Source of the DNA: a virus
Lineage: Duplodnaviria; Heunggongvirae; Uroviricota; Caudoviricetes
IMG/VR virus record: IMGVR_UViG_2617270946_000003
Length of the DNA stretch: 10,164 nt
Reading direction: 5' to 3' (one strand)
The notes beneath the pieces are model-generated. The model was not told the origin of the DNA, ran no database searches, and saw only the letters and a list, made by a program, of their open reading frames with translations. The translations under genes were made by a program, and so were the position numbers. Of the stretch, positions 1-10,164 are shown one piece after another. Numbering within the stretch: the stretch's first letter is position 1; every line of letters begins with the position of its first letter.

Positions 1-76
1 CCTCACAGTTTATCCCGCCATATTCGTTGCTGGCTGCATTTCGTACTGCAAGAATCTCTTTTCCCTTATCCACCAT
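1..76 (-). CDS. Partial ORF immediately downstream of the tail fibre gene (3' end beyond window edge); function unknown, by position possibly a tail fibre assembly/chaperone gene
   Basis: On the minus strand the fibre stop TAG (87..85) is followed directly by AGGAGG (84..79) and ATG (76..74), with in-frame GTG at 73..71. It reads MVDKGKEILAVRNAASNEYGGINCE to the window edge. Not recognised as lambda Tfa. Confidence 0.35.
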   Translation of the reverse strand, partial: MVDKGKEILAVRNAASNEYGGINCE

Positions 77-84
77 GACCTCCT

Positions 85-1323
85 CTATGATATGCGCTGA
101 AATAATCCTGCCTGTCTGATACCCGGAGATGATGTCCATAGCATCGGACCACATGCACGCCACGTGCCCGGTAAACGGGTCTCCCCCACATTACCGGAAG
201 CAACCAGGGGAGTACCATCCGAAAGGCAACATGCAGACAGTGATGAGCCGGCAATGGCTGAGCCCGGTGCCATATCCCCCGAATAACTCGTCGCATAATA
301 TGCCGCAAGGACAAAAGAACCGACACCAAACAGTCCGCTGTCAGGACTTCCTGACGGTCCCTGAGGTCCTGCCGGACCTGCGGCTCCCGTATCTCCTTTT
401 GGCCCCTGAGGCCCTGCCTGACCTGCGGCTCCCGTATCCCCTTTTGGCCCCTGTGGTCCTGCCGGGCCTGCAGCTCCCGTATCTCCCTTTGGCCCCTGAG
501 GTCCTGCCGGACCTGCGGCTCCCGTATCTCCTTTTGGCCCCTGAGGTCCTGCCGGGCCTGCAGCTCCCGTATCTCCCTTTGGCCCCTGAGGTCCTGCCGG
601 ACCTGCGGCTCCCGTATCTCCTTTTGGCCCCTGAGGCCCTGCCTGACCTGCGGCTCCCGTATCCCCTTTTGGCCCCTGAGGCCCTGCCGGGCCTGCGGCT
701 CCCGTATCCCCTTTTGGCCCCTGAAGCCCTGCCGGGCCTGTATCCCCCTTGTCGCCCTTCGGTCCCAGTGGTCCGCCCGGATCGCCCTGCTCACCTTTCG
801 GACCTGTATCCCCCTTATCGCCCTTGTCACCTTTATCCCCTTTCGGCCCCGGTGGCCCTGCCGGGCCTGTATCGCCCTTGTCCCCCTTCTGTCCCTGTGG
901 ACCAGTTGCTCCGGTGTCGCCTTTCAGTCCCTGTGGCCCCACGGCAGTTTCGGCTTTCTCAGCAGCTTCTCGCGCCCTGCGCACAGCCTCATCCGCCGCC
1001 GCTTCCAGCTTCTTCAGTGCATCAGGATAATACGCTGCATCCGTTTCACGGAGCAGAAAGGCATTCAGGGTGCCCGGTTCGTCGTCGGCCATGACATCAA
1101 TCTCGCCGGCGCATGCCGGCTGACGACCTTCCACGCACAAGGTCACACGATAACGCCCCGGCTCAACCTGCATGCTGTAACTGCCCGTTTCGCCTGGCTG
1201 GTGCTCTGCCACCGTGGTGACTATCACCGTCTCACTCGTTCGCGTGGCTTTCAGCTCTATGGTGCAGTCCGGTACCGGTTTTCCTGTACCATCCTTCAGC
1301 ACACCTGAAATCTGTACTGACAT
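85..1323 (-). CDS. stf: Side tail fibre protein with collagen-like (Gly-X-Y) repeat shaft; N-terminal ~100 aa resemble the lambda Stf N-terminal domain
   Basis: 412-aa ORF with ATG at 1323..1321 preceded by a G-rich SD. N-terminus [17 protein letters not shown]...GTLNAFL resembles lambda Stf ([26 protein letters not shown]...GTLNDFL, from memory). Followed by a charged helical segment, then ~65 Gly-X-Y triplets and a ~95-aa non-repetitive C-terminus. Confidence 0.85.
359..718. repeat. Eight near-identical head-to-tail copies of a 45-bp unit (15 codons, [15 protein letters not shown]-type) inside the fibre gene
   Basis: Unit cctgaggtcctgccggacctgcggctcccgtatctccttttggcc begins at 359, 404, 449, 494, 539, 584, 629 and 674. 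Units at 359, 494 and 584 are identical, as are those at 404 and 629. More degenerate 9-bp collagen triplet repeats continue to ~942. Confidence 0.92.
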
Positions 1324-2096
1324 ATTCCCCCCACAAAAAAGCCCACCAGAACCGGCGGGCTGTCATAACTCTGTGTTACCTGGCTATGGTAGTTCACCGT
1401 CATCTGCTGACCACCAAACTGCTCCGCATCCACCTGCATCCCCACAATGGCCGTGTTCGGGTAGCACTGTTTCACATCGATGATTTCGGTGTATGACGAC
1501 CACAGCGTTCTGTTCTGCAGCTGGTCCGTGGTGCTGTCCGCCGTCTCCCTGACCATCCGGATGTTAAAGGGGCGGGGAGGCAGATTATCCAGAATCACCG
1601 AGGCCAGGAACTGTGAGGTGGTCTTGCCGTTAATGGTGACATCCTTTTCTGTCACCCAGTTACCGTTACGCTGTAACTGAATCAGCAGACGGACAGAGGA
1701 CGGATTACGGTCACCCTTTGACGTGGTCTCCACCAGTGACTGCACCCCGAAGGTCACCCGCAGGCGGTCAATGTTCGCTGACGTAATGGTGCGTGTTACC
1801 GGTTTTGCCCTGGTCACTTCGACACCCAGTACAGTTTCAGAGCCGGAGGACTCAAAGCCTTCCGGTGGTGTCTGCTCCTGCTCCCCGGCACGCCAGACCG
1901 CGGTCACACCGTGTATCACGGGATTACCGTCCGTGTCCGTCAGCGGGGTTTTGTTCACCAGAATACTCTGCAGGCTTTTCACCGGGCCTTCTATCGGTCC
2001 CTCACCAATCGCATCAATCACGCTCATCATCTGCGTGGATTTGAGATTGTCTTTCGCCTCACGAGGCGTGTGTGCCTTACCGCCACCTTTTCCCAT
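1296..2096 (-). pseudogene. J: Truncated central tail fibre / host specificity protein J: only the N-terminal ~236 codons, then ~30 unrelated codons to a stop
   Basis: MGKGGGKAHTPREAKDNLKSTQ...NIRMVRETADSTTDQLQNRTLWSSYTEIIDVKQCYPNTA matches the lambda J N-terminus (MGKGSSKGHTPREAKDNLKSTQ..., from memory) at roughly 80% identity. Similarity stops after ...QQMTVNYH (~1385). Lambda J is 1132 aa. SD GGGGAAGG precedes the ATG at 2096. Confidence 0.85.
1333..1361 (-). terminator. Hairpin plus U-tract just upstream of the fibre start codon (putative intrinsic terminator/attenuator)
   Basis: Minus-strand RNA AGCCCGCCGG-UU-CUGGUGGGCU followed by UUUUUUGU, ~10 nt before the fibre ATG. Stem includes two G-U pairs. 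Confidence 0.4.
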
Positions 2097-2194
2097 ACAG
2101 CCTTCCCCTGAATAAATTAACCGCCACTTGCCATTCCGTACAGAAGTCGGATATCCTTCGCCCGAAAAGCATGAAACACATTTCTGCCATGCTA

Positions 2195-2236
2195 AAGAGA
2201 AACCCCGGTATCAGCAGATACCGGGGTTTTCTTTCA
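2195..2236. terminator. GC-rich perfect inverted repeat with U-rich flank on both strands (possible bidirectional intrinsic terminator) in the I-J spacer
   Basis: aaccccggtat (2201..2211) / cagcag loop / ataccggggtt (2218..2228): 11-bp perfect stem. Followed by ttttctttc on the plus strand and by UUUCUCUUU on the minus strand. Confidence 0.45.
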
Positions 2237-2301
2237 TGCCCACCGATAATCCTGTTGGTTAAAACCGGTAATGGCATAAAAATTCTGAATATCTTCACAT
2301 T

Positions 2302-2329
2302 TTCACAAACTGACCGTGGCGCGTATAAT
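2302..2329 (+). promoter_or_regulatory. Sigma70-like promoter on the plus strand (antisense to the late operon)
   Basis: TTCACA (2302..2307), 16-bp spacer, perfect TATAAT (2324..2329), in an AT-rich context. Predicted start near 2336. Confidence 0.4.
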
Positions 2330-2335
2330 TTCTCT

Positions 2336-2441
2336 GCGTTAATTTTTTTGTCGTGATATAAGAATAATTCCTTACACTTAATCTTCGTAACTCTCCCGCA
2401 GTTCCTGTCCGCGATCACTGCGGGATTTTTTTATTCTTTTT
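2336..2441 (+). ncRNA. Candidate ~100-nt non-coding transcript between the predicted promoter and the plus-strand terminator
   Basis: No ATG-initiated ORF between 2336 and 2424 on the plus strand. Bounded by the promoter (2302..2329) and the terminator hairpin (2395..2424) plus T-tract. Purely a sequence-based prediction. Confidence 0.25.
2395..2441 (+). terminator. Plus-strand intrinsic terminator abutting the 3' end of gene I
   Basis: Stem cccgcag (2395..2401) / ctgcggg (2418..2424) followed by tttttttattcttttt (2426..2441). On the minus strand the A-run precedes the stem, so it is oriented for plus-strand termination only. Confidence 0.5.
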
Positions 2442-3105
2442 ACCCCTGCCGCCCGATAACCACGACCTTTCCGCCCCCGCCTTCATCACGGGTGCTGATG
2501 TCCTGGGATATACGGCGGGAGCCAACCAGCATTTCCCCGTAAGGCACCGGCATCGGGTTCCCCTGGGCAATCATGTTATCCAGCGAGGAAAAGTACGTGT
2601 TCTGTCTGCCGTTATCCGTTGCGCGGTAATCCGGTGTTTTTGCCTTCGGGGCCAGCATCTGGGCCACACCGCCCAGTATCATGCTGGCACCCAGTGAAAA
2701 CAGCATCGTGGTGGCAGAAAAACCACCGGCACTCAGGGCTGTACCCCATAACGCCATCGAGCCTCCGGCCGTGAAGAAAGAGCCCACGATGGCTGCCGCC
2801 CCCAACACAATCTGCAGTCCACCCTTTCCGGCCCCGGCCAGTCGCGGCACAATGTGGATGACCGTTCCCTCACCCAGCTGTTCGTGAAGGCGGGCGTACA
2901 CCACCTCCGGTGCCGTGTCTTCACCGGCAATACGTATCTGGTACCAGCCTTCGTTCATCTGAAGGCGAAAGCCCGGCATCTGCATCGACAGGGCGCGAAT
3001 GGCTTCCGCTGCCGTGTTCACATACAGGCTGAGGCGGCGGCCAAATCGTTGTAAATCCCCGTGGTTGCCCACGGTTGAGCCAGAGATAACAGCTTCCACC
3101 ATCAT
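2440..3105 (-). pseudogene. I: Tail assembly protein I homologue lacking its native N-terminus (first ~15 codons come from the FII/I deletion junction)
   Basis: From residue ~16 (GDLQRFGRR...) to the C-terminus (...GGKVVVIGRQG) it resembles lambda gpI (223 aa, from memory). The ATG at 3105 lies inside FII-derived sequence in another frame. Stop TAA at 2442..2440. Confidence 0.75.
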
Positions 3106-3391
3106 CCGGCGAAACCCGGTCTATCCAGAAGTTTTCCTCACCGATGGTCAGCGTGTCTCCACGCCGCAGTTGCCGCACATCATCAGTCCGGACAAACAGG
3201 GACGGGCTGGAGCCTTCAACGCGCACGCCCTGTCCGGCATAGCTGATATTTTCAGGGTCATCAAAAACACCACGTATTACTGCGCCGGACTGCTCACCGG
3301 ATGTCATGGTGGCTGACGTTCCCATGTACCCGCGTATCGTTTCATCGGCGCGGGCAATGGCAGCATCGAACAGGTTATCGAAATCAGCCAC
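2921..3391 (-). pseudogene. FII: Head-tail joining protein FII with altered 3' end: ~110 lambda-like codons, then read-through into gene I sequence out of frame (156-aa chimeric ORF)
   Basis: MADFDNLFDAAIARADETIRGYMGTSAT...EENFWIDRVSPDDGGSCYLWL matches lambda FII (117 aa) and diverges after ~residue 110. GTG start at 3391 with SD GGGAGG 4 nt upstream. The FI-FII gap is 11 nt, as in lambda. Confidence 0.8.
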
Positions 3392-3402
3392 AGCGCCTCC
3401 CG

Positions 3403-3798
3403 TTATTGCATTCTGGCCAGGCCGCGCTCTGTCATTTCAGCTGCCACACCGGCAGAGACACGGAACGCCGTTCCCGGCAGCACAAATGCCACAGTGTCAT
3501 CCCGCGTGGCGTGAAGTGCATCAGTATGCAGCGTCACCAGTGCCACGACCGTGACCAGAGCAGCCGTATCAATCACGGTATCCGGCTGCGCTGATACCAC
3601 CTCATTTTCATGTCCGGTCAGCGCATTTTCCGGGCTGACAGATGTGTCCTGACCGGCAGCGTCATCCGTGTCATCAAGCTCCTCTTCCAGCTCTGCCACA
3701 CGGAGCACCAGTTCTTCTTTCGTCCCCGTCAGGCTGACATCACGGTTCAGTTGCTCACCCAGCACCTGAAGACGGGCAATCAGTTCATCTTTCGTCAT
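3403..3798 (-). CDS. FI: DNA packaging / head assembly protein FI
   Basis: 131 aa from the ATG at 3798 (MTKDELIARL...AEMTERGLARMQ) matches lambda gpFI (132 aa). SD GGAGGAG upstream. The upstream extension in the ORF track (MALRGHF...) overlaps a hairpin and is not taken as the start. Confidence 0.9.
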   Translation of the reverse strand: MTKDELIARLQVLGEQLNRDVSLTGTKEELVLRVAELEEELDDTDDAAGQDTSVSPENALTGHENEVVSAQPDTVIDTAALVTVVALVTLHTDALHATRDDTVAFVLPGTAFRVSAGVAAEMTERGLARMQ

Positions 3799-3807
3799 GG
3801 ACTCCTC

Positions 3808-3837
3808 CACAGAGAGAAAATGGCCCCGAAGGGCCAT
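3808..3837 (-). terminator. Stable hairpin with UUCG tetraloop plus U-rich tract directly after the major capsid gene stop (attenuator or mRNA-stabilising element)
   Basis: Minus-strand RNA AUGGCCC-UUCG-GGGCCAU (3837..3820) followed by UUUUCUCUCU, in the 41-nt gap between E and FI. Confidence 0.4.
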
Positions 3838-3839
3838 GA

Positions 3840-4865
3840 TTACGCCAGTTGTACGGACACGAACGCATCAGGATCAGCCAGCAGCATCAGCGGTGCTGAC
3901 TGAATCATGGTGAACTCACGCGCCGGATCGCCGGTGGTCACCCAGTTTTTCGGGTAGCGGGCAGAGGCGTTAATACCTTCGCGCTGTGCGTCCGCATCCT
4001 GAATGCAGCCATAGGTGCGCAGACCGCGTGCCTGAGTGTTCCCCAGCACCATCGTGTTGTCCGGCAGGAAGTTCTTTTTGACGTCGTTTTCCACGTACTG
4101 TCCGGAATACACGACGATCGCCGTATCGCCATACATCCCCTTATAGGACACCGCTTCGCCCAGGTCTTTTACCGCTGTCTCCAGCTCGGAATTAGAGCCG
4201 CGACGGGTATCCAGCTTCTCCTTGACGGCTTTGAAGGAACGGAACAGCGCCCAGCCTTTCGGATCAAACACGATGATATTCACCACGCCGCTGGCGTTCA
4301 GCGCGTAGGCTTCGATATCGTCGGTCGGGTCATACGTGGACTTGTCACGCTTGCTCCACTCCGTGCCGCCGGACTGCGTGATGTTGTTCGCCGCACTGCG
4401 GCCCATATCCACCTCAACCGGATCGAAGGCTTCACCGGTCATGGTGTATTTGCCCTTGAGCACGGCAGAAACGGCCTGCATCTCTTCGACCTGAGCAATG
4501 GCCAGCTCTTCGTCACGCATGTTCTGCATGATGATGCGACGGCGGCGGTAAGTCGGGTCCGCCAGATTCTGCGGATCTTCATCCGGCAGGCGACGCAGGG
4601 TCATCTGCGGATTCACTTCATGCTTGGGTTTGACATATCCCGGCGTAAATTCAGAGGTGGAGCCGCCACGGGAACGGATAACCTCACCGGAAACAATCGG
4701 CGAAACGTACAGCGCCATGTTTACCAGTCCCGGAATTTGTGAGAGATAGACTTTCTCCGTAGTGAAGGGATAGCTCTCACGGAAAAAGAGACGCAGAAAC
4801 AGCGGATCAAACTTAAATTTCTGCTCATTTGCCGCCAGCAGCTGGGCGGTTGTGTACATCGACAT
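3840..4865 (-). CDS. E: Major capsid protein E
   Basis: 341 aa, MSMYTTAQLLAANEQKFKFDPLFLRLFF...FVSVQLA, essentially lambda gpE, with identical length and identical gaps to D (55 nt) and FI (41 nt). Confidence 0.97.
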   Translation of the reverse strand: MSMYTTAQLLAANEQKFKFDPLFLRLFFRESYPFTTEKVYLSQIPGLVNMALYVSPIVSGEVIRSRGGSTSEFTPGYVKPKHEVNPQMTLRRLPDEDPQNLADPTYRRRRIIMQNMRDEELAIAQVEEMQAVSAVLKGKYTMTGEAFDPVEVDMGRSAANNITQSGGTEWSKRDKSTYDPTDDIEAYALNASGVVNIIVFDPKGWALFRSFKAVKEKLDTRRGSNSELETAVKDLGEAVSYKGMYGDTAIVVYSGQYVENDVKKNFLPDNTMVLGNTQARGLRTYGCIQDADAQREGINASARYPKNWVTTGDPAREFTMIQSAPLMLLADPDAFVSVQLA

Positions 4866-4871
4866 AAAAAA

Positions 4872-4903
4872 ATCCCGTAAAAAAAGCCGAACAGGCGGCC
4901 TTT
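4872..4903 (-). terminator. Hairpin plus long U-tract in the D-E intergenic region
   Basis: Minus-strand RNA AAGGCCG-CCUGUU-CGGCUUU followed by UUUUACGGGAUUUUUUU immediately before the E ATG. Confidence 0.3.
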
Positions 4904-4920
4904 AGTGATGAAGGGTAAAG

Positions 4921-5253
4921 TTAAACGATGCTGATTGCCGTTCCGGCAAACGCGGTCCGTTTTTTCGTCTCGTCGCTGGCAGCCTCCGGCCAGAGCACAT
5001 CCTCATAACGGAACGTGCCGGACTTGTAGAACGTCAGCGTGGTGCTGGTCTGGTCAGCAGCAACCGCAAGAATGCCAACGGCAGCACCGTCGGTGGTGCC
5101 ATCCCACGCAACCAGCTTACGGGTGGAGGTGTCCAGCATCAGCGGGGTCATTGCAGGCGCTTTCGCACTCAATCCGCCGGGCGCGGTTGCGGTATGAGCC
5201 GGGTCACTGTTGCCCAGCGGCTGGTAATGGGTAAAGGTTTCTTTGCTCGTCAT
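4921..5253 (-). CDS. D: Head decoration protein D
   Basis: 110 aa from the ATG at 5253 ([12 protein letters not shown]...TAISIV), near-identical to lambda gpD. SD AAGGG 6 nt upstream. The ORF track start at 5259 (MFM...) is 2 codons too long. Confidence 0.95.
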
Positions 5254-5262
5254 AAACATCCC

Positions 5263-5868
5263 TTACACTGGTGTGTTCAGCAAATCGTTAACGGCATCAG
5301 ATGCCAGGTTACCTGCAGCCAGCGGTGCCGGTGCCCCCTGCATCAGACGATCCAGCGCAGTATCACTGCGCGCCTGTGCACTCTGTGGTGCTGCGGCCAG
5401 AATGCGGCGGGCCGTTTCCACGGTCATACCGGGGGGTTCTGCCAGCACGCGGGCCTGTTCTTCGCGTCCGTGAGCCTCCTCACAGTTGAGGATCCCCATA
5501 ATGCGGCTGTTTTCTGCCGCAACCGCAGCGTTGATCTGCGCGTTCACGTCCGGCTGCGCCGCGCTGGCGTTTTCGCCCTCCATCGCTGGCACCACGCCAG
5601 TAACGTCAGCCTGCGAAGCAGTGGCTGAAACAGTTGTTGATTGAGTCTCTTTGGTCATTCGCCCTCCTGAGAGACGGGATTTACGTGCATCCAGTGCATC
5701 ACGCATGATGGTGATCGCATCGGTACTGTTAACAAGTTCATCAGCCAGTCCGGCATCAATGGCCTCCTGACCGCTGTACACTGCAGCCTCGGTATCCAGC
5801 ACAGCCTGCACGGACAGGCCGGTATATGCCGACACCTTCTGTGCAAACATCCGGCGGGTTGCATCCAT
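5263..5868 (-). CDS. Nu3: Scaffolding protein Nu3, nested in frame within the 3' third of C
   Basis: In-frame ATG at 5868 (MDATRRMFAQ...) gives 201 aa sharing the C stop, the same length and arrangement as lambda Nu3. No strong SD is visible, so confidence is lower. Confidence 0.6.
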   Translation of the reverse strand: MDATRRMFAQKVSAYTGLSVQAVLDTEAAVYSGQEAIDAGLADELVNSTDAITIMRDALDARKSRLSGGRMTKETQSTTVSATASQADVTGVVPAMEGENASAAQPDVNAQINAAVAAENSRIMGILNCEEAHGREEQARVLAEPPGMTVETARRILAAAPQSAQARSDTALDRLMQGAPAPLAAGNLASDAVNDLLNTPV

Positions 5869-6582
5869 CCGGGACTGCAGTGTTTCCCGGACATCATCCG
5901 GTAGATGGCTGTAGGGGTTGCCATCCACCTTATGGCTGCCGCTGTAAATCAGCGTGATTTCCACGCCCTGTTTCTCCAGCGCAGCACCGTAATTACTGTG
6001 AGCCATCATGACGCCGATGGAGCCTGTCCGGGCGGTCTGCGTGACCAGACGCCGGGAGGCGGCACTGGCAAGCAGCTGACCTGCGCTGCAGTTCATGTCA
6101 TTGGCCAGCGCCCATACCGGCTTTATGTCACGCACACGGGCGATGATGTCAGCGCAGTCAAATGCCCCTGCCACCATTCCGCCGGGCGTGTCCATATCCA
6201 GCAGAATGCCGTCCACCATCGGGTCGCTGGCAGCCTGTTGCAGACGGGCGATAATGCCGTTGTAACCAGTCATCCCCGAATACGGCTGCAGCGCCCGCGT
6301 CCGGCAGACCAGCGTGCCGGAAACCGGCAGCACGGCGATGCCGTTCATGACCTGATAACTGCGGGCCTGTCGTGGTCCGTCATCATTAACGGATAACGCC
6401 AGCTTCGCGGGTGCCTCTCCGGCAGTCAGGCTGTCACCGGACACCGCATCCGTCAGGCGGCTGATCCCAAGCTGGCCTGCAAGCGCACAAAAGAAAACCC
6501 GCGCATAGGCGGGTTCAAGCATAAGCGGCTCATTAAAGGCCATGCTGGCAATATGCGGGAGATTACGCAGCTCTGCTGTCAC
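5263..6582 (-). CDS. C: Head maturation protease / scaffold C
   Basis: 439 aa from GTG at 6582 (VTAELRNLPHIASMAFNEPLMLEPAYARVFF...), near-identical to lambda gpC. SD GGAGGA 5 nt upstream. Overlaps the end of B by 20 nt, as in lambda. The ORF track start at 6717 is an upstream artefact. Confidence 0.92.
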   Translation of the reverse strand: MTAELRNLPHIASMAFNEPLMLEPAYARVFFCALAGQLGISRLTDAVSGDSLTAGEAPAKLALSVNDDGPRQARSYQVMNGIAVLPVSGTLVCRTRALQPYSGMTGYNGIIARLQQAASDPMVDGILLDMDTPGGMVAGAFDCADIIARVRDIKPVWALANDMNCSAGQLLASAASRRLVTQTARTGSIGVMMAHSNYGAALEKQGVEITLIYSGSHKVDGNPYSHLPDDVRETLQSRMDATRRMFAQKVSAYTGLSVQAVLDTEAAVYSGQEAIDAGLADELVNSTDAITIMRDALDARKSRLSGGRMTKETQSTTVSATASQADVTGVVPAMEGENASAAQPDVNAQINAAVAAENSRIMGILNCEEAHGREEQARVLAEPPGMTVETARRILAAAPQSAQARSDTALDRLMQGAPAPLAAGNLASDAVNDLLNTPV

Positions 6583-7735
6583 TCTTCTCCTCCTCTGTTG
6601 ATTGTCGCAGTCCGGATTCAAATGCCGCAGCCGCCCAGGCGGGCGGTTTAAGACCGGCTGCACGGCGCTCCATCGTTTCACGGACCTGCTGGGCAAAAAT
6701 TTCCTGATAGTCGTCACCGCGTTTTGCGCACTCTTTCTCGTAGGTACTCAGTCCGGCTTCTATCAGCATCACCGCTTCCTGTACTTCTTTCAGACCATCG
6801 ATGGCCATACGACCGGAGCCTATCCAGTCACAGTTCCCCCAGGCGCTGCGGGCTTCCTGAAAGCTGAAACGCGCTTTTGAAGGTAACGTCACCACGCGGC
6901 GAACGATGGCCTCTTCCAGCCAGCACAGAAACATCTGGCTCGCCTGACGGGATGCGACGAATTTTCGCCGCCCCATAAAGTACGCCCACGACTCGTTCGC
7001 ACTGGCCCGTGCCGTGGAATAGCTCATCTGGGCGTAATTCCGGGAAAGCTGCTCATACGAGACACCCAGCCCGGCAGCGATATACCGCAACAGTGACTGC
7101 TCAAACACGGAGTAGCCGTTATCCGTATCCTGAGCCGTCTGCAGGTTCAGTGAGTCACCCGGCATCAGGTGCGGCACTTTTGCGCCTCCCAGCCGAACCG
7201 GTGCTGCGGCGTAATACGCGGCAATTTCACCAATCCAGCCGGTCAGCTTGTCCCGCTGCTCCTGACTGTTCGCGCCCAGAATAAAATCCATCGCTGACTG
7301 CGTATCCAGCTCACTCTCAATGGTGGCGGCATACATCGCCTTCACAATGGCGCTCTGCAGCTGCGTGTTCTGCAGCGTGTCGAGCATCTTCATCTGCTCC
7401 ATCACGCTGTAAAACACATTTGCACCGCGGGTCTGCCCGTCCTCCACGGGTTCAAAAACGTGAATGAACGAGGCGCGCCCGCCGGGTAACTCACGGGGTA
7501 TCCATGTCCATTTCTGCGGCATCCAGCCAGGATAGCCGTCCTCGCTGACGTAATATCCCAGCGCCGCACCGCTGTCATTAATCTGCACACCGGCACGGCA
7601 GTTCCGGCTGTCGCCGGTATTGTTCGGGTTGCTGATGCGCTTCGGGCTGACCATCCGGAACTGTGTCCGGAAAAGCCACGACGGACTGGTATCCCAGGTG
7701 GCCTGAACGAACAGTTCACCGTTAAAGGCGTGCAT
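6563..7735 (-). pseudogene. B: Portal protein B lacking roughly its N-terminal 143 codons
   Basis: C-terminal ~390 aa (MHAFNGELFVQATWDTS...EEEKSDSRAA) match lambda gpB (533 aa). The A-stop to C-start distance is 1193 nt here versus 1781 nt in lambda, so 588 bp are missing. The first in-frame ATG is 7735; the track start at 7759 is TTG. Confidence 0.85.
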
Positions 7736-7778
7736 GCAGTGCCGCACGGGCAGCGGCAAGTTCTTCCTGTCGCGTCAT
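7722..7778 (-). pseudogene. W: Remnant of head-tail joining gene W: 15 conserved codons, then 3 novel codons and a stop
   Basis: ATG at 7778 overlaps the A stop (ATGA). Translation [18 protein letters not shown]-stop versus lambda W [21 protein letters not shown]... (68 aa). Confidence 0.7.
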
Positions 7779-9700
7779 TCATCCTCTCCGGATAAGGCAC
7801 GGGCGTAATCTGCCAGTGTTTTCTTGTTGGTTGCTGCACCATCCTCTTCCTTCAGGCTCGCCAGCAGTGCACTGAGATCCAGCTGCCAGCGGGAAATACT
7901 GATGCGCAGCGCCGCCAGCGCATAAACGAAGCAGTCGAGCGCCTCATTGCGTCGTTTTTTGCTGTCCCACAGTATTTTTTTCCTGCCATCCACCCATTTT
8001 TCGACCTGCTCTTCAGCCGTCAGCTGCTGCGCTTCGGTCAGATCAAAAATATCCGGGTTATTCGGGAAGTGAACGGCACCGGGAAGCGGTTCATCCCCTT
8101 CCGGCGTCAGTGTGAAGCGGTTATAAATCTGCTCTTTCGCGGTATCCGTACCGATTTCGGTAAGGTAAACCCCGTTTTTGTTTCGCTTACGTGGCATGCT
8201 GGCCACCGGCTTTCCGTAGACGGATGCCCCTTTAATGGGGATCACCCGGAACAGCCCATGTTTTTTCGAGCGTTCATACACGATGGTCGGGTCAATCCCG
8301 CCAGTATCCCAGCAGATACGGGATACCGACATTTCTGCACCATTCCGGCGGGTATAGGTTTTATTGATGGCCTCATCCACACGCAGCAGCGTCTGTTCAT
8401 CGTCGTGGCGGCCCATAATAATCTGCCGATCAATCAGCCAGCTTTCCTCACCCGGCCCCCATCCCCATACGCGCATTTCGTAGCGATCCAGCTGGGAGTC
8501 GATACCGGCGGTCAGGTAAGCCACACGGTCAGGAACGGGCGCTGAATAATGCTCTTTCCGCTCTGCCATCACTTCAGCATCCGGACGTTCGCCAATTTTC
8601 GCCTCCCACGTCTCACCGAGCGTGGTGTTTACGAAGGTTTTACGTTTTCCCGTATCCCCTTTCGTTTTCATCCAGTCTTTGACAATCTGCACCCAGGTGG
8701 TGAACGGGCTGTACGCTGTCCAGATGTGAAAGGTCACACTGTCAGGTGGCTCAATCTCTTCACCGGATGACGAAAACCAGAGAATGCCATCACGGGTCCA
8801 GATCCCGGTCTTTTCGCAGATATAACGGGCATCAGTAAAGTCCAGCTCCTGCTGGCAGATGACGCAGGCATTATGCTCGCAGAGATAAAACACGCTGGAG
8901 GGGTCATCCGGCGTCCATTTGAGGCCAAACGGCGTCTCTTTGTCGCCAAATTTAAGATACTGCTCCTCCCCGCAGTGCGGGCAGGCAACATGAAAACGCA
9001 TAAAATGCGGGGATTCACTGGCTGCACGCTCAATCTGGCAGGTGCCTCTCACTTTGGGCGTGGAGCCACGGATGGACTTTGGCCAGACCGAGCCTTCAAT
9101 ACGCTTATCGCCCAGGAACGTCGGAGAGCCTTCCTGTTCAATATCCTCATCAAAGGCAGCAAGTTCATCATAACCCGCCACATCCACTGACTTTTCACGG
9201 TAGTTTTTTGCCGCTTTACCGCCCAGGCACCAGAAGCCACGACCATTGGAAAAACGCTTCATGGTGAGCGTGTTATCCCGGTGCTTTTTGCCATACCACG
9301 GGGCCAGCGCCAGCAGCGACGGAATATCACGAATAGTCGGTTCAACGTGGGTTTTCATAAAGTTCTCGGCATCACCATCCGTCGGCAACCAGATAAGGGT
9401 GTTGCGCTGCTTATGCTCTATGAAGTAGGCATAAACACCCAGCAGCATTTTGGAATAACCAACACGGGCAGACTTCACCACATTCACCTCACGGATGTAG
9501 TCGCTGCCCATCGCATTCATGATGGCCCGCTGAAAGGGCAGTGTTTCCCAGCGCCCTTCCTGGTATGCGGATTCTTTCGGGAGATAGTAATTGGCATCCG
9601 CCCATTCAACGGCGGTCTGTGGCTCCGGCCTGAACAGTGAGCGAAGCCCGGCGCGGACAAAATGCCGCAGCCTGTTAACCTGACTGTTCGATATATTCAC
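7775..9700 (-). CDS. A: Terminase large subunit A
   Basis: 641 aa (MNISNSQVNRLRHFVRAGLRSLFRPEPQTAVEWADANYYLP...LADYARALSGEDE), near-identical to lambda gpA and the same length. The start codon at 9700 is GTG in this sequence. Overlaps Nu1 by 26 nt, as in lambda. Confidence 0.97.
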   Translation of the reverse strand: MNISNSQVNRLRHFVRAGLRSLFRPEPQTAVEWADANYYLPKESAYQEGRWETLPFQRAIMNAMGSDYIREVNVVKSARVGYSKMLLGVYAYFIEHKQRNTLIWLPTDGDAENFMKTHVEPTIRDIPSLLALAPWYGKKHRDNTLTMKRFSNGRGFWCLGGKAAKNYREKSVDVAGYDELAAFDEDIEQEGSPTFLGDKRIEGSVWPKSIRGSTPKVRGTCQIERAASESPHFMRFHVACPHCGEEQYLKFGDKETPFGLKWTPDDPSSVFYLCEHNACVICQQELDFTDARYICEKTGIWTRDGILWFSSSGEEIEPPDSVTFHIWTAYSPFTTWVQIVKDWMKTKGDTGKRKTFVNTTLGETWEAKIGERPDAEVMAERKEHYSAPVPDRVAYLTAGIDSQLDRYEMRVWGWGPGEESWLIDRQIIMGRHDDEQTLLRVDEAINKTYTRRNGAEMSVSRICWDTGGIDPTIVYERSKKHGLFRVIPIKGASVYGKPVASMPRKRNKNGVYLTEIGTDTAKEQIYNRFTLTPEGDEPLPGAVHFPNNPDIFDLTEAQQLTAEEQVEKWVDGRKKILWDSKKRRNEALDCFVYALAALRISISRWQLDLSALLASLKEEDGAATNKKTLADYARALSGEDE

Positions 9701-10164
9701 TCAGCAACCCCGGTATCAGTTCATCCAGCGCGGCTGCTTTGTTCATGGCTTTGATGATATCCCGTTTCAGGAAATCAACATGTCGGTTTTCCAGTTCCGG
9801 AAAACGCCGCTGCACCGACAGGGGGATCCCGTCGAGAATACTGGCAATTTCACCTGCGATCCGCGACAACACGAAAGTACAGAATGCGGTTTCCACCACT
9901 TCAGCGGAGTCTCTGGCATTCTTCAGTTCCTGTGCGTCGGCCTGCGCACGCGTAAGTCGATGGCGTTCGTACTCAATAGTCCCTGGCTGGAGATCTGTCT
10001 CGCTGGCCTGCCGCAGTTCTTCAACTTCCCGGCGCAGCTTTTCGTTCTCAATTTCAGCATCCCTTTCGGCATACCATTTTATGACGGCGGCAGAGTCATA
10101 AAGCACCTCATTACCCTTGCCACCGCCTCGCAGAACGGGCATTCCCTGTTCCTGCCAGTTCTGA
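9675..10164 (-). CDS. Nu1: Terminase small subunit Nu1 (5' end outside the window; ~26 N-terminal codons missing from view)
   Basis: ...QNWQEQGMPVLRGGGKGNEVLYDSAAVIKWYAERDAEIENEKLRREVEELRQASE...SEYIEQSG matches lambda Nu1 residues ~19-181. The frame stays open to the window edge. Confidence 0.93.
   Translation of the reverse strand, partial: QNWQEQGMPVLRGGGKGNEVLYDSAAVIKWYAERDAEIENEKLRREVEELRQASETDLQPGTIEYERHRLTRAQADAQELKNARDSAEVVETAFCTFVLSRIAGEIASILDGIPLSVQRRFPELENRHVDFLKRDIIKAMNKAAALDELIPGLLSEYIEQSG

Follow-up and report, generated by a model that had tools for sequence, protein, structure and literature searches.

A probable defective lambdoid prophage at an early stage of decay in a rare Escherichia coli clone

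We analysed a window of 10,164 bp, the complete draft contig JNRI01000098.1 of an E. coli strain, and found that it is very probably the late part of a defective lambdoid prophage, recently crippled and undergoing ordinary decay in a rare E. coli clone. The late genes lie on the minus strand of the window in ordered blocks collinear with phage lambda, with agreeing Pfam families, and W, residues 1-143 of B, the end of FII, Z-U-V-G-T-H-M-L, K, the C-terminus of J and lom are gone. Both ends of the window are assembly breaks without biological meaning that fall in repeated prophage sequence. The remnant of the strain itself is known from this one contig, and its cos site, lysis genes, early region, integrase and attachment sites are inferred from sister contigs. 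Two of these (L004 and L019), and not JNRI01000098.1 itself, provide the chromosomal flanks, potB-potA-pepT-roxA-phoQ-phoP-purB, at 99.5% identity to E. coli.

Local BLAST of the window against lambda (NC_001416) aligned Nu1, A and the start of W at window 10164-7733 (lambda 247-2678, 98.7% identity), B' to FII at 7736-3078 (lambda 3264-7925, 97.2%), gene I at 3062-2450 (lambda 14831-15440, 70%), the N-terminus of J at 2096-1400 (lambda 15505-16201, 78%), and the lom-stf spacer with the start of stf at 1386-1162 (lambda 19587-19811, 79%). Identity to lambda thus falls from 97-99% for the head genes to 70-79% for I, J and the fibre, the greater divergence of the latter being as the initial annotation had described it. 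The late region is a three-part mosaic: its packaging and head genes are lambda-type, its tail tip has a non-lambda I-J allele, and its collagen-repeat fibre belongs to a third type. Against lambda-type prophages the head genes reach 97-99.9%, and the I-J allele is a common E. coli prophage type (98.6% identity to H56, 70-78% to lambda); with head, I-J and fibre matching three different prophage types, the earlier view of a recombinant lambdoid prophage holds. Lambda, ev207, PhiR29_1 and the prophage of E. coli 23CRST047 have the remnant's gene order, Nu1-A-W-B-C/Nu3-D-E-FI-FII...K-I-J-(lom)-stf. The 23CRST047 prophage (L010) is intact, occupies the same chromosomal site as the remnant does in L004, next to potB, and shares the I-J allele at 97%; it served as the reference for breakpoints. 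Compared with lambda and 23CRST047, the remnant lacks 589 bp, 6,965 bp and 3,432 bp, losses that take away the portal N-terminus, W, the tail shaft, the J C-terminus and lom, and its fibre type is unlike that of either.

Measured against L010, the microhomology at each of the three junctions is only 2-4 bp, and the losses (W with the portal N-terminus, the tail shaft with the end of FII, and most of J with lom) were probably illegitimate deletions of microhomology origin. The first junction (DEL1, 7733..7736, microhomology CATG) lacks 589 bp, corresponding to lambda 2679-3267 and the region of L010 27054-27638; no complete E. coli genome among the matches listed crosses it in one piece, the matches being in two pieces spanning 940 bp. 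On its W side (W', 7737..7778, minus strand) only the first ~15 codons of the head-tail adaptor remain before the frame is lost into B, the W start being at lambda 2633 and the alignment ending at lambda 2678; a 146-aa ORF over this region (7402-7842) has no Pfam match. On the other side, B' (6563..7735, minus strand) is a portal without its N-terminal 143 residues that covers only positions 110-354 of the 354 in the Phage_portal_2 profile. The annotation shows a 390-aa gene here solely because Met144 of the native protein survives the junction as an ATG; the exact product occurs in 5 contigs only.

The second junction (DEL2, 3061..3063, microhomology GTG) lacks 6,965 bp, comprising the 3' end of FII, Z, U, V, G, T, H, M, L and most of K, and none of the complete E. 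coli genomes crosses it (best coverage 51%). It produces the 156-aa fusion frame FII' (2921..3391, minus strand; Phage_attach, residues 8-105), in which FII residues 1-110 of 117 are kept, the last 7 lost, and followed by 46 out-of-frame residues across the K/I remnant; this exact product is found in 7 contigs only. K' (3022..3063, minus strand) is the final 42 nt of the tail-tip peptidase K, placed by the offset to K (15379-16122) and I (14801-15382) of L010.

The third junction (DEL3, 1385..1386, microhomology TA) lacks 3,432 bp, the rest of J and all of lom. The resulting J' (1296..2096, minus strand) consists of the first ~238 residues of the tail-tip protein and 28 foreign residues, retains only the Pfam domain FNIII-A_GpJ, and occurs exactly in 8 contigs, including an independent Logan assembly. 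It is followed by the lom-stf spacer (1324..1384, minus strand), recognised by alignment to lambda and a terminator scan, with a terminator-like hairpin at 1361-1340. The complete genomes E105, PE164 and F2_81 carry a related junction that is longer by 13 bp towards lom, and the J-side breakpoint of this unrelated remnant is, to the nucleotide, that of DEL3. DEL3 may therefore have come from an older remnant through recombination instead of arising in this prophage, which would alter the history and leave the verdict of a defective prophage unchanged. The three deletions of the initial annotation are confirmed as three exact breaks, but DEL3 may not have been independent. We infer that B', FII' and J' have lost their function. 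With W, the portal, the tail shaft and J destroyed, the element would therefore be unable to build a prohead with a portal, a tail or a tail tip. The case raised earlier, an intact phage with its tail genes encoded elsewhere, does not apply: the deletions lie inside one contiguous sequence, which leaves no place for tail genes between the retained genes.

The remaining packaging and head genes, all on the minus strand, are open, as had been reported from the letters of the window. The terminase small subunit Nu1 (9675..10164; lambda 247-736) is represented by residues 19-181, with 2 of 163 differing from lambda Nu1; it is open to the contig end, which cuts off only its first 18 codons, the 5' end and cos lying beyond. 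The large subunit A (7775..9700, 641 aa; Pfam GpA_ATPase and GpA_nuclease) is intact, 98.7% identical to lambda and 99.9% to prophage L011, with one private change, R282C. The S49 prohead protease C (5263..6582, 439 aa; lambda 4418-5737) is 99.8% identical to L010 and contains the nested, intact Nu3 scaffold (5263-5868; lambda 5132-5737). From their frames and comparison with relatives, the decoration protein D (4921..5253, 110 aa), the major capsid protein E (3840..4865, 341 aa; 99.4% to L012, one private change, A105T) and the packaging chaperone FI (3403..3798, 131 aa) are likewise intact. A, C/Nu3, D, E and FI contain no internal stops. The description of a near-complete, lambda-identical head can be kept only in part: these genes are close to lambda, but at 97-99% are not identical to it, and W, B and FII are disrupted.

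We found the junctions in a few clonal draft assemblies only; of 5,426 complete E. coli genomes, none has them. The same junctions recur in six independent NCBI assemblies, and DEL3 also in the independent Logan assembly at 100% identity. Outside the repeat array the sister contigs are 0-3 SNPs apart and therefore represent one clone. Two sister strains carry a fourth deletion of ~13 kb, from the 5' part of an esterase gene to E codon ~280, that removes the lysis genes, cos, Nu1, A, B', C, D and most of E; the B' product is absent from both assemblies. The next step of decay would be deletion of the whole head module, as in these close relatives, and the earlier proposal that the prophage is being degraded is strengthened by this loss on top of the three microhomology deletions.

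Comparing the window with 10 relatives over ~7 kb of head genes, we identified five private substitutions with a nonsynonymous to synonymous ratio of 4:1, versus 124:256 among the functional relatives (Fisher p=0.044). On these five substitutions and this panel of ten, the retained head genes appear to be under relaxed rather than purifying selection. The purifying selection expected of domesticated genes is not what we see in a single clone with 4N:1S, a count of low power at 5 changes, and with the head module deleted in two sisters. The open frames of the retained head genes probably reflect recent damage and not maintenance, point mutations not yet having had the time to hit them. The initial annotation had seen no direct evidence that the retained genes are maintained, and for the head genes the private substitutions and the loss of the module in close relatives agree with it.

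Gene I (2440..3021, minus strand; 193 aa, Pfam Lambda_tail_I) is intact in its non-lambda allele (70% to lambda, 97% to L010, 98.6% to H56). In the I-J spacer, antisense to the late operon, promoter and terminator scans, folding and alignments identify a PasB-family sRNA gene (2302..2431, plus strand). It has a near-consensus promoter (TTCACA-16-TATAAT, 2302-2329), a predicted transcript of roughly 2336/2349-2431 ending in a terminator hairpin (2408-2424) with T7, and a fold of -19.4 kcal/mol (z=-2.3). PasB of enteropathogenic E. coli (EPEC) E2348/69 has a published Northern probe that matches window 2407-2426 as its reverse complement at 20 of 23 nt, and PasB in that strain (1466261-1466343, minus strand; prophage PP6) likewise lies between a tail assembly protein and gpJ. 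The element thus belongs to the family both by location (I-J spacer, antisense to late genes) and by sequence, sharing position, orientation, promoter (TTCACA..TATAAT), internal motifs and terminator, but the window allele differs considerably from that of E2348/69 in the 5' and middle parts of the transcript. A member of this family would be expected to be expressed as an Hfq-dependent RNA of about 83 nt. Rfam holds no model for PasB.

This element gives the strongest of the alternatives its substance. The remnant could be partially domesticated, whittled by selection around host-useful parts, chiefly the PasB-family sRNA and possibly the pair of fibre and DUF4376 genes, a reading we consider unlikely; that the paring was non-random, so that a prophage has been caught becoming a host-serving regulatory RNA, perhaps with the fibre and DUF4376 genes, we likewise regard as unlikely. 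DEL2 and DEL3 flank a surviving 1.68-kb island, K'-I-PasB-J', that every sister contig shares, the two without the head module among them, with one intergenic SNP (2350) in one contig as the only change, and the promoter and terminator of the sRNA element are sound. The PasB sRNA of EPEC is abundant, depends on Hfq and acts on many targets (Pearl Mizrahi et al., 2021, PMC8550237), and PasB is found more often outside predicted prophage regions than within them, possible evidence that neighbouring phage genes degrade (Zhu, Shabalina & Storz, 2026, bioRxiv). The PasB homologue is the one plausible host-useful part of the remnant. Retention of the island carries no statistical weight, however, in a single clonal lineage with almost no divergence, and the window allele differs substantially from that of E2348/69 in the 5' body, the expected location of the seed.

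Ordinary decay also accounts for the remnant better than a satellite-like element dependent on a helper, in which terminase and capsid would be kept for packaging or for hijacking a co-resident lambdoid phage, a reading that is highly improbable. Nu1, A, C, Nu3, D, E and FI are intact, and defective prophages of enterohaemorrhagic E. coli have reportedly been mobilised by co-resident phages (Asadulghani et al., 2009). Yet with the portal truncated, W gone and FII damaged the element could not make heads of its own, a helper with a compatible portal would already supply every retained function, the private substitutions are mostly nonsynonymous and the module is lost in sister strains. We saw no satellite hallmarks in the window or the sister contigs, and the early region of L004 has ordinary lambdoid NinE-RusA-Q genes. 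Capsid-forming phage-inducible chromosomal islands (cf-PICIs) carry a head set that is complete and self-sufficient, portal and connectors included, together with an integrase and regulation module of their own. The remnant resembles them in having packaging and capsid genes without tail genes, but its portal and connectors (portal, W, FII) are broken, its genes are plain lambda genes, and tail fragments of K, I and J are present.

False joins made from short reads among several lambdoid prophages of one genome are a very remote prospect, even though the contig is a draft that ends in repeated prophage sequence and the fibre repeat copy number varies between sisters: the 2-4 bp shared at the junctions are far below any assembler k-mer, the junctions recur in six assemblies and, for DEL3, in the Logan contig, and the sister contigs reach unique chromosome. 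A lambda laboratory vector or synthetic construct contaminating the assembly, which lambda-type head genes with late-region deletions might suggest and which the initial annotation had kept in view, has practically no likelihood, as the head genes diverge from lambda by 1.3-2.8% and I, J and stf by 21-30%, natural E. coli prophages are closer gene by gene (up to 99.9-100%), no vector backbone is present in the window, and the sister contigs are chromosomal, running into potB-potA-pepT-roxA-phoQ.

Few features of E. coli genomes are better known than defective lambdoid prophages, with DLP12, Rac and Qin of K-12 and the defective prophage pool of O157 Sakai as cryptic examples; the pattern is expected, and the remnant is of little importance in itself. 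Like them, it is a chromosomal lambdoid remnant in which internal deletions and non-functional structural genes coexist with fibre genes and small regulatory RNAs that were kept. In contrast to them, it is much younger, seven of its head and packaging genes being still intact and only 0.1-0.6% away from functional relatives, its deletions probably arose by microhomology instead of insertion sequences, and it is confined to one small clone. What it offers is a clean, datable snapshot of early decay, with breakpoints placed at single-nucleotide precision by comparison with an intact prophage from the same site and sisters that show the next step, in which the first damage was by short-microhomology deletions and not by insertion sequences or point mutations. 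Because annotation lists the truncated portal, FII' and J' like any other gene, such a remnant could score as a near-intact prophage. The PasB-family sRNA that it keeps could contribute to testing, at the level of populations, whether sRNA genes persist longer than their prophages.

At the downstream end of the late operon, the stf-like side tail fibre (85..1323, minus strand; 412 aa, defined by Pfam and TRF) is intact, with a phage_tail_N domain, a collagen-like Gly-X-Y region and a short C-terminal domain. The collagen-like repeat consists of 8.5 copies of a 45-bp unit (359-740, TRF); copy number varies among sister assemblies, possibly as an artefact. The fibre has the same length as that of the HK97-like, intact-looking prophage of ZH49, with 391 of 412 residues identical (95% protein identity). 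It is followed by the start of a fibre-associated DUF4376 gene (1..139, minus strand; assigned from Pfam and L004), cut by the contig end, and in L004 this gene is complete at 223 aa, with potB next to it.

Exact-protein matching identified the window as contig JNRI01000098.1 (10,164 bp) of the draft assembly GCA_000704605.1, in full and in reverse orientation. Because it is an entire contig, both of its ends are assembly breaks, one inside Nu1 at lambda position 247 and the other after the first 139 nt of a DUF4376 gene that follows the tail fibre; the late genes between them are all on the minus strand. Local BLAST against lambda (NC_001416) returned five blocks in collinear order: Nu1, A and the first 46 nt of W (window 10164-7733, lambda 247-2678, 98.7% identity); B from residue 144, C/Nu3, D, E, FI and most of FII (window 7736-3078, lambda 3264-7925, 97.2%); I (window 3062-2450, lambda 14831-15440, 70%); the J N-terminus (window 2096-1400, lambda 15505-16201, 78%); and the lom-stf spacer with the start of stf (window 1386-1162, lambda 19587-19811, 79%). 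In a phage collection, megablast matched 293 records, the best of which span window 3078-10164 as two 98% pieces. The initial annotation had described a degrading recombinant lambdoid prophage with three breaks in one late operon, a head close to lambda and a more diverged I, J and fibre, and the alignments, at 97-99% versus 70-79% identity, support that interpretation. We are highly confident that the window is an ordinary lambdoid prophage, recently inactivated and decaying by microhomology-mediated deletions: such deletions would have inactivated the prophage, and the remaining head genes would be intact because inactivation was recent. It is a new but unremarkable case of a very well-known kind.

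Exact breakpoints were set against an apparently intact lambdoid prophage adjoining potB in E. coli 23CRST047 (L010), which matches the window in head type (98.4-98.7%) and I-J allele (97%) and confirmed the three breaks seen against lambda. The first deletion (DEL1, 589 bp, CATG shared at window 7733-7736) loses W after codon 15 and B residues 1-143. The second (DEL2, 6,965 bp, GTG shared at 3061-3063) loses the end of FII, Z, U, V, G, T, H, M, L and nearly all of K, and the third (DEL3, 3,432 bp, TA shared at 1385-1386) loses J after about residue 238 together with lom. Because other E. coli prophages carry window 1382-3063, which holds the K leftover, I, the spacer and the J leftover, as a single piece with identity reaching 98.6%, there is no fourth break from I to J.

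The genes listed beforehand as intact are so: A (641 aa), C (439 aa) with nested Nu3, D, E (341 aa) and FI (131 aa) are free of internal stops, as is I (193 aa), and Nu1 is open up to the contig end with 2 of its 163 visible residues differing from lambda. The description of a near-complete, lambda-identical head module overstates this, however, as three of the ten head genes are disrupted and the match to lambda is 97-99%. W retains 15 codons; the portal B lacks residues 1-143, its Pfam match being restricted to profile positions 110-354; and FII has lost its last 7 residues and gained 46 foreign ones. Among the tail genes, J is shortened from roughly 1,150 residues to about 238. The truncated portal (window 6563-7735, minus strand) is still annotated as a gene of 390 aa, since the junctional CATG preserves native Met144 as an in-frame ATG start. 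Together with the FII (156 aa) and J (266 aa) leftovers, likewise called as normal genes, it forms an annotation pitfall, and such fragment calls could give the remnant a falsely intact appearance.

Over window 3078-10164 the head genes form a fine-scale mosaic in which the nearest relative switches from gene to gene: the prophage of S1-CAM-01-A (L011) for A and the truncated B (99.9%), that of 23CRST047 for C (99.8%), that of strain 8GC (L012) for E (99.4%), and both L010 and L011 for the retained part of FII (100%). I-J belongs to an allele family other than lambda's and the fibre is a third type, the usual lambdoid mosaic and in agreement with the proposed recombinant origin. This combination of head and I-J is not special to the remnant, being shared with the intact 23CRST047 prophage. 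Each gene of the window has an annotated relative that is nearly identical.

The 344-bp, low-GC spacer between I and J contains a predicted PasB-family small RNA gene (2302-2431, plus strand) that runs antisense to the late operon and would give a transcript of about 85-98 nt. Its near-consensus sigma-70 promoter (TTCACA-16-TATAAT, 2302-2329) is the best promoter match of the window at 11 of 12 positions, and its rho-independent terminator consists of a hairpin at 2408-2424 followed by seven T residues; the predicted RNA of ~98 nt folds at -19.4 kcal/mol (z = -2.3). PasB is an Hfq-dependent sRNA of prophage PP6 in EPEC E2348/69 (PMC8550237), where it occupies the same I-J spacer in the same orientation, and 20 of the 23 nt of its published Northern probe are the reverse complement of window 2407-2426 (PMC8550237 Table S6). 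In alignments, the promoter, internal motifs and terminator are conserved while the 5' body has diverged, and many lambdoid phages, Stx phages among them, conserve segment 2276-2431 at 94-97%. A consensus fold of three PasB alleles, too few sequences for the purpose, supported the terminator stem alone, with no covariation. An Rfam scan of the whole window (E <= 1) gave a chance mir-214 match as its sole hit and none in the I-J spacer; Rfam has no model for PasB. We rejected assignment to the AgvB/AsxR anti-sRNAs, as those sit at the PR' moron site downstream of Q rather than between I and J. PasB genes are reported to lie within structural-gene operons and, among Pas sRNAs, to be the ones most frequently seen outside predicted prophages, for which the authors suggest decay of the neighbours as a possible cause (Zhu, Shabalina and Storz, 2026 bioRxiv). 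The island carrying the element has survived with a deletion on either side and is present in every sister strain, a hint that the remnant has been domesticated around the sRNA; since these strains form one young clone, its survival is no more than that, and we consider domestication improbable.

Separately, a second strong hairpin with a T-run (AAACCCCGGTATC...GATACCGGGGTTTTCTTTC, about 2205-2235, plus strand) lies downstream of a weak promoter-like site at 2128-2157. The ~140-bp extra segment containing it is found only in I-J spacers of the window and 23CRST047 type, being absent from those of E2348/69, PV0838 and ZH49, and could encode another small transcript or a terminator (2128-2235).

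Decay of a recently inactivated prophage is further supported by the sister contigs, which are clonal, with 0-3 SNPs over 8-9 kb when the fibre repeat is excluded. Against ten relatives, about 7 kb of head genes carry 5 substitutions private to the window, 4 nonsynonymous and 1 synonymous, compared with 124 nonsynonymous to 256 synonymous polymorphisms among the relatives (Fisher p=0.044); this pool includes 20:5 from FII, counts to be disregarded because they were made in the wrong reading frame. FII itself has no private substitutions, and the private change T383P in C is still polymorphic within the clone. From these counts the remnant looks very young and its few changes unconstrained, and because so few substitutions have hit, intact reading frames are the expected outcome. 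Two sister strains (L004 and L005) carry DEL2, DEL3 and a further deletion of ~13 kb (DEL4) that joins the 5' part of a SASA-type esterase gene to E at codon ~280 (window 4013; L004 3583-4065, L005 760-1264), removing the lysis genes, cos, Nu1, A, the truncated B, C, D and most of E; the truncated B product is missing from both assemblies. This fourth deletion adds to the evidence that the prophage is being degraded, and because the head module is naturally deleted in these strains, it is dispensable in the clone. A helper-dependent, satellite-like element, which the otherwise intact head genes might bring to mind, is very unlikely given this loss and the broken portal and connectors.

The deletion junctions recur across assemblies. 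Exact junction products were found on 7 contigs for FII, 8 for J and 5 for B, from one small set of NCBI assemblies and one Logan assembly (SRR1186490), the latter 100% identical to window 1284-2950, across DEL3. Of 5,426 complete E. coli genomes, none reads across DEL2 or DEL3, and among the matches listed none spans DEL1 in a single piece. An assembly artefact is highly improbable, because the 2-4 bp shared at the junctions is far too little to mislead an assembler. DEL3 may have a longer history. Three complete genomes (E105, PE164 and F2_81) carry a J-lom deletion in a different prophage remnant, one with the effectors cif, nleH and espJ, whose J-side breakpoint is nucleotide-identical to that of DEL3 (L010 13745/13746; E105 prophage L022, 6100-6270), whereas the lom-side breakpoints differ by 13 bp. 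That the J-side breakpoint is shared by chance seems unlikely; DEL3 could derive from an E105-type allele that later lost 13 bp between TA repeats, or both could have arisen at a hotspot of deletion. Of the three deletions, proposed to be independent, DEL3 may therefore have been acquired from an older remnant through recombination instead of arising in this prophage.

Chromosomal flanks come from sister contigs lacking the head module. Upstream of the remnant, L004/L019 carry NinE-YbcO-RusA-YlcG-Q, a DNA methylase and three tRNAs; after the fibre they continue through DUF4376 and a YkgJ-like gene into potB-potA-pepT-roxA-phoQ-phoP-purB, 99.5% identical to E. coli. The prophage has its right end at potB, and its host is E. 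coli. The initial annotation had suggested inspecting the flanks for cos, integrase and attachment sites: the E. coli flank was obtained, but cos, integrase and attL were recovered in no member of the clone. A vector origin, which that annotation had also raised, can be dismissed with near certainty, as the near-lambda head sequence that could suggest one is 1-3% diverged from lambda and sister contigs place the same remnant in chromosomal flanks. The remnant with DEL2, DEL3 and DEL4 is followed by potB in L004/L019 (9082 onward), and in L005/L020 (6366 onward) by intS, tRNA-Arg(CCT) (argW), yfdC, mlaA and fadL; the last ~660 bp ahead of the latter switch are a diverged allele, 92% identical to L010. 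This pattern suggests that prophages recombined, or that the chromosome was rearranged, in that strain.

The fibre gene (85-1323, minus strand) is complete and encodes 412 aa, comprising a phage_tail_N domain, a collagen-like region encoded by 8.5 copies of a 45-bp unit (window 359-740) and a short C-terminal domain. Searched by tblastn against phages, it matched in the N-terminal domain only, because the collagen region was masked as low complexity; a full-length match came from a chromosomal prophage, that of ZH49, which is intact-looking, HK97-like and at the same potB site, and whose fibre is of equal length with 391 of 412 residues identical. Many apparent SNPs at 359-740 between sister contigs were rejected as register shifts of the 45-bp repeat rather than substitutions. 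Fibre lengths across sister assemblies are 397, 412, 442 and at least 427 aa, in 15-aa steps, which means either that the repeat number truly varies in this single clone or that short reads were misassembled across the 380-bp array.
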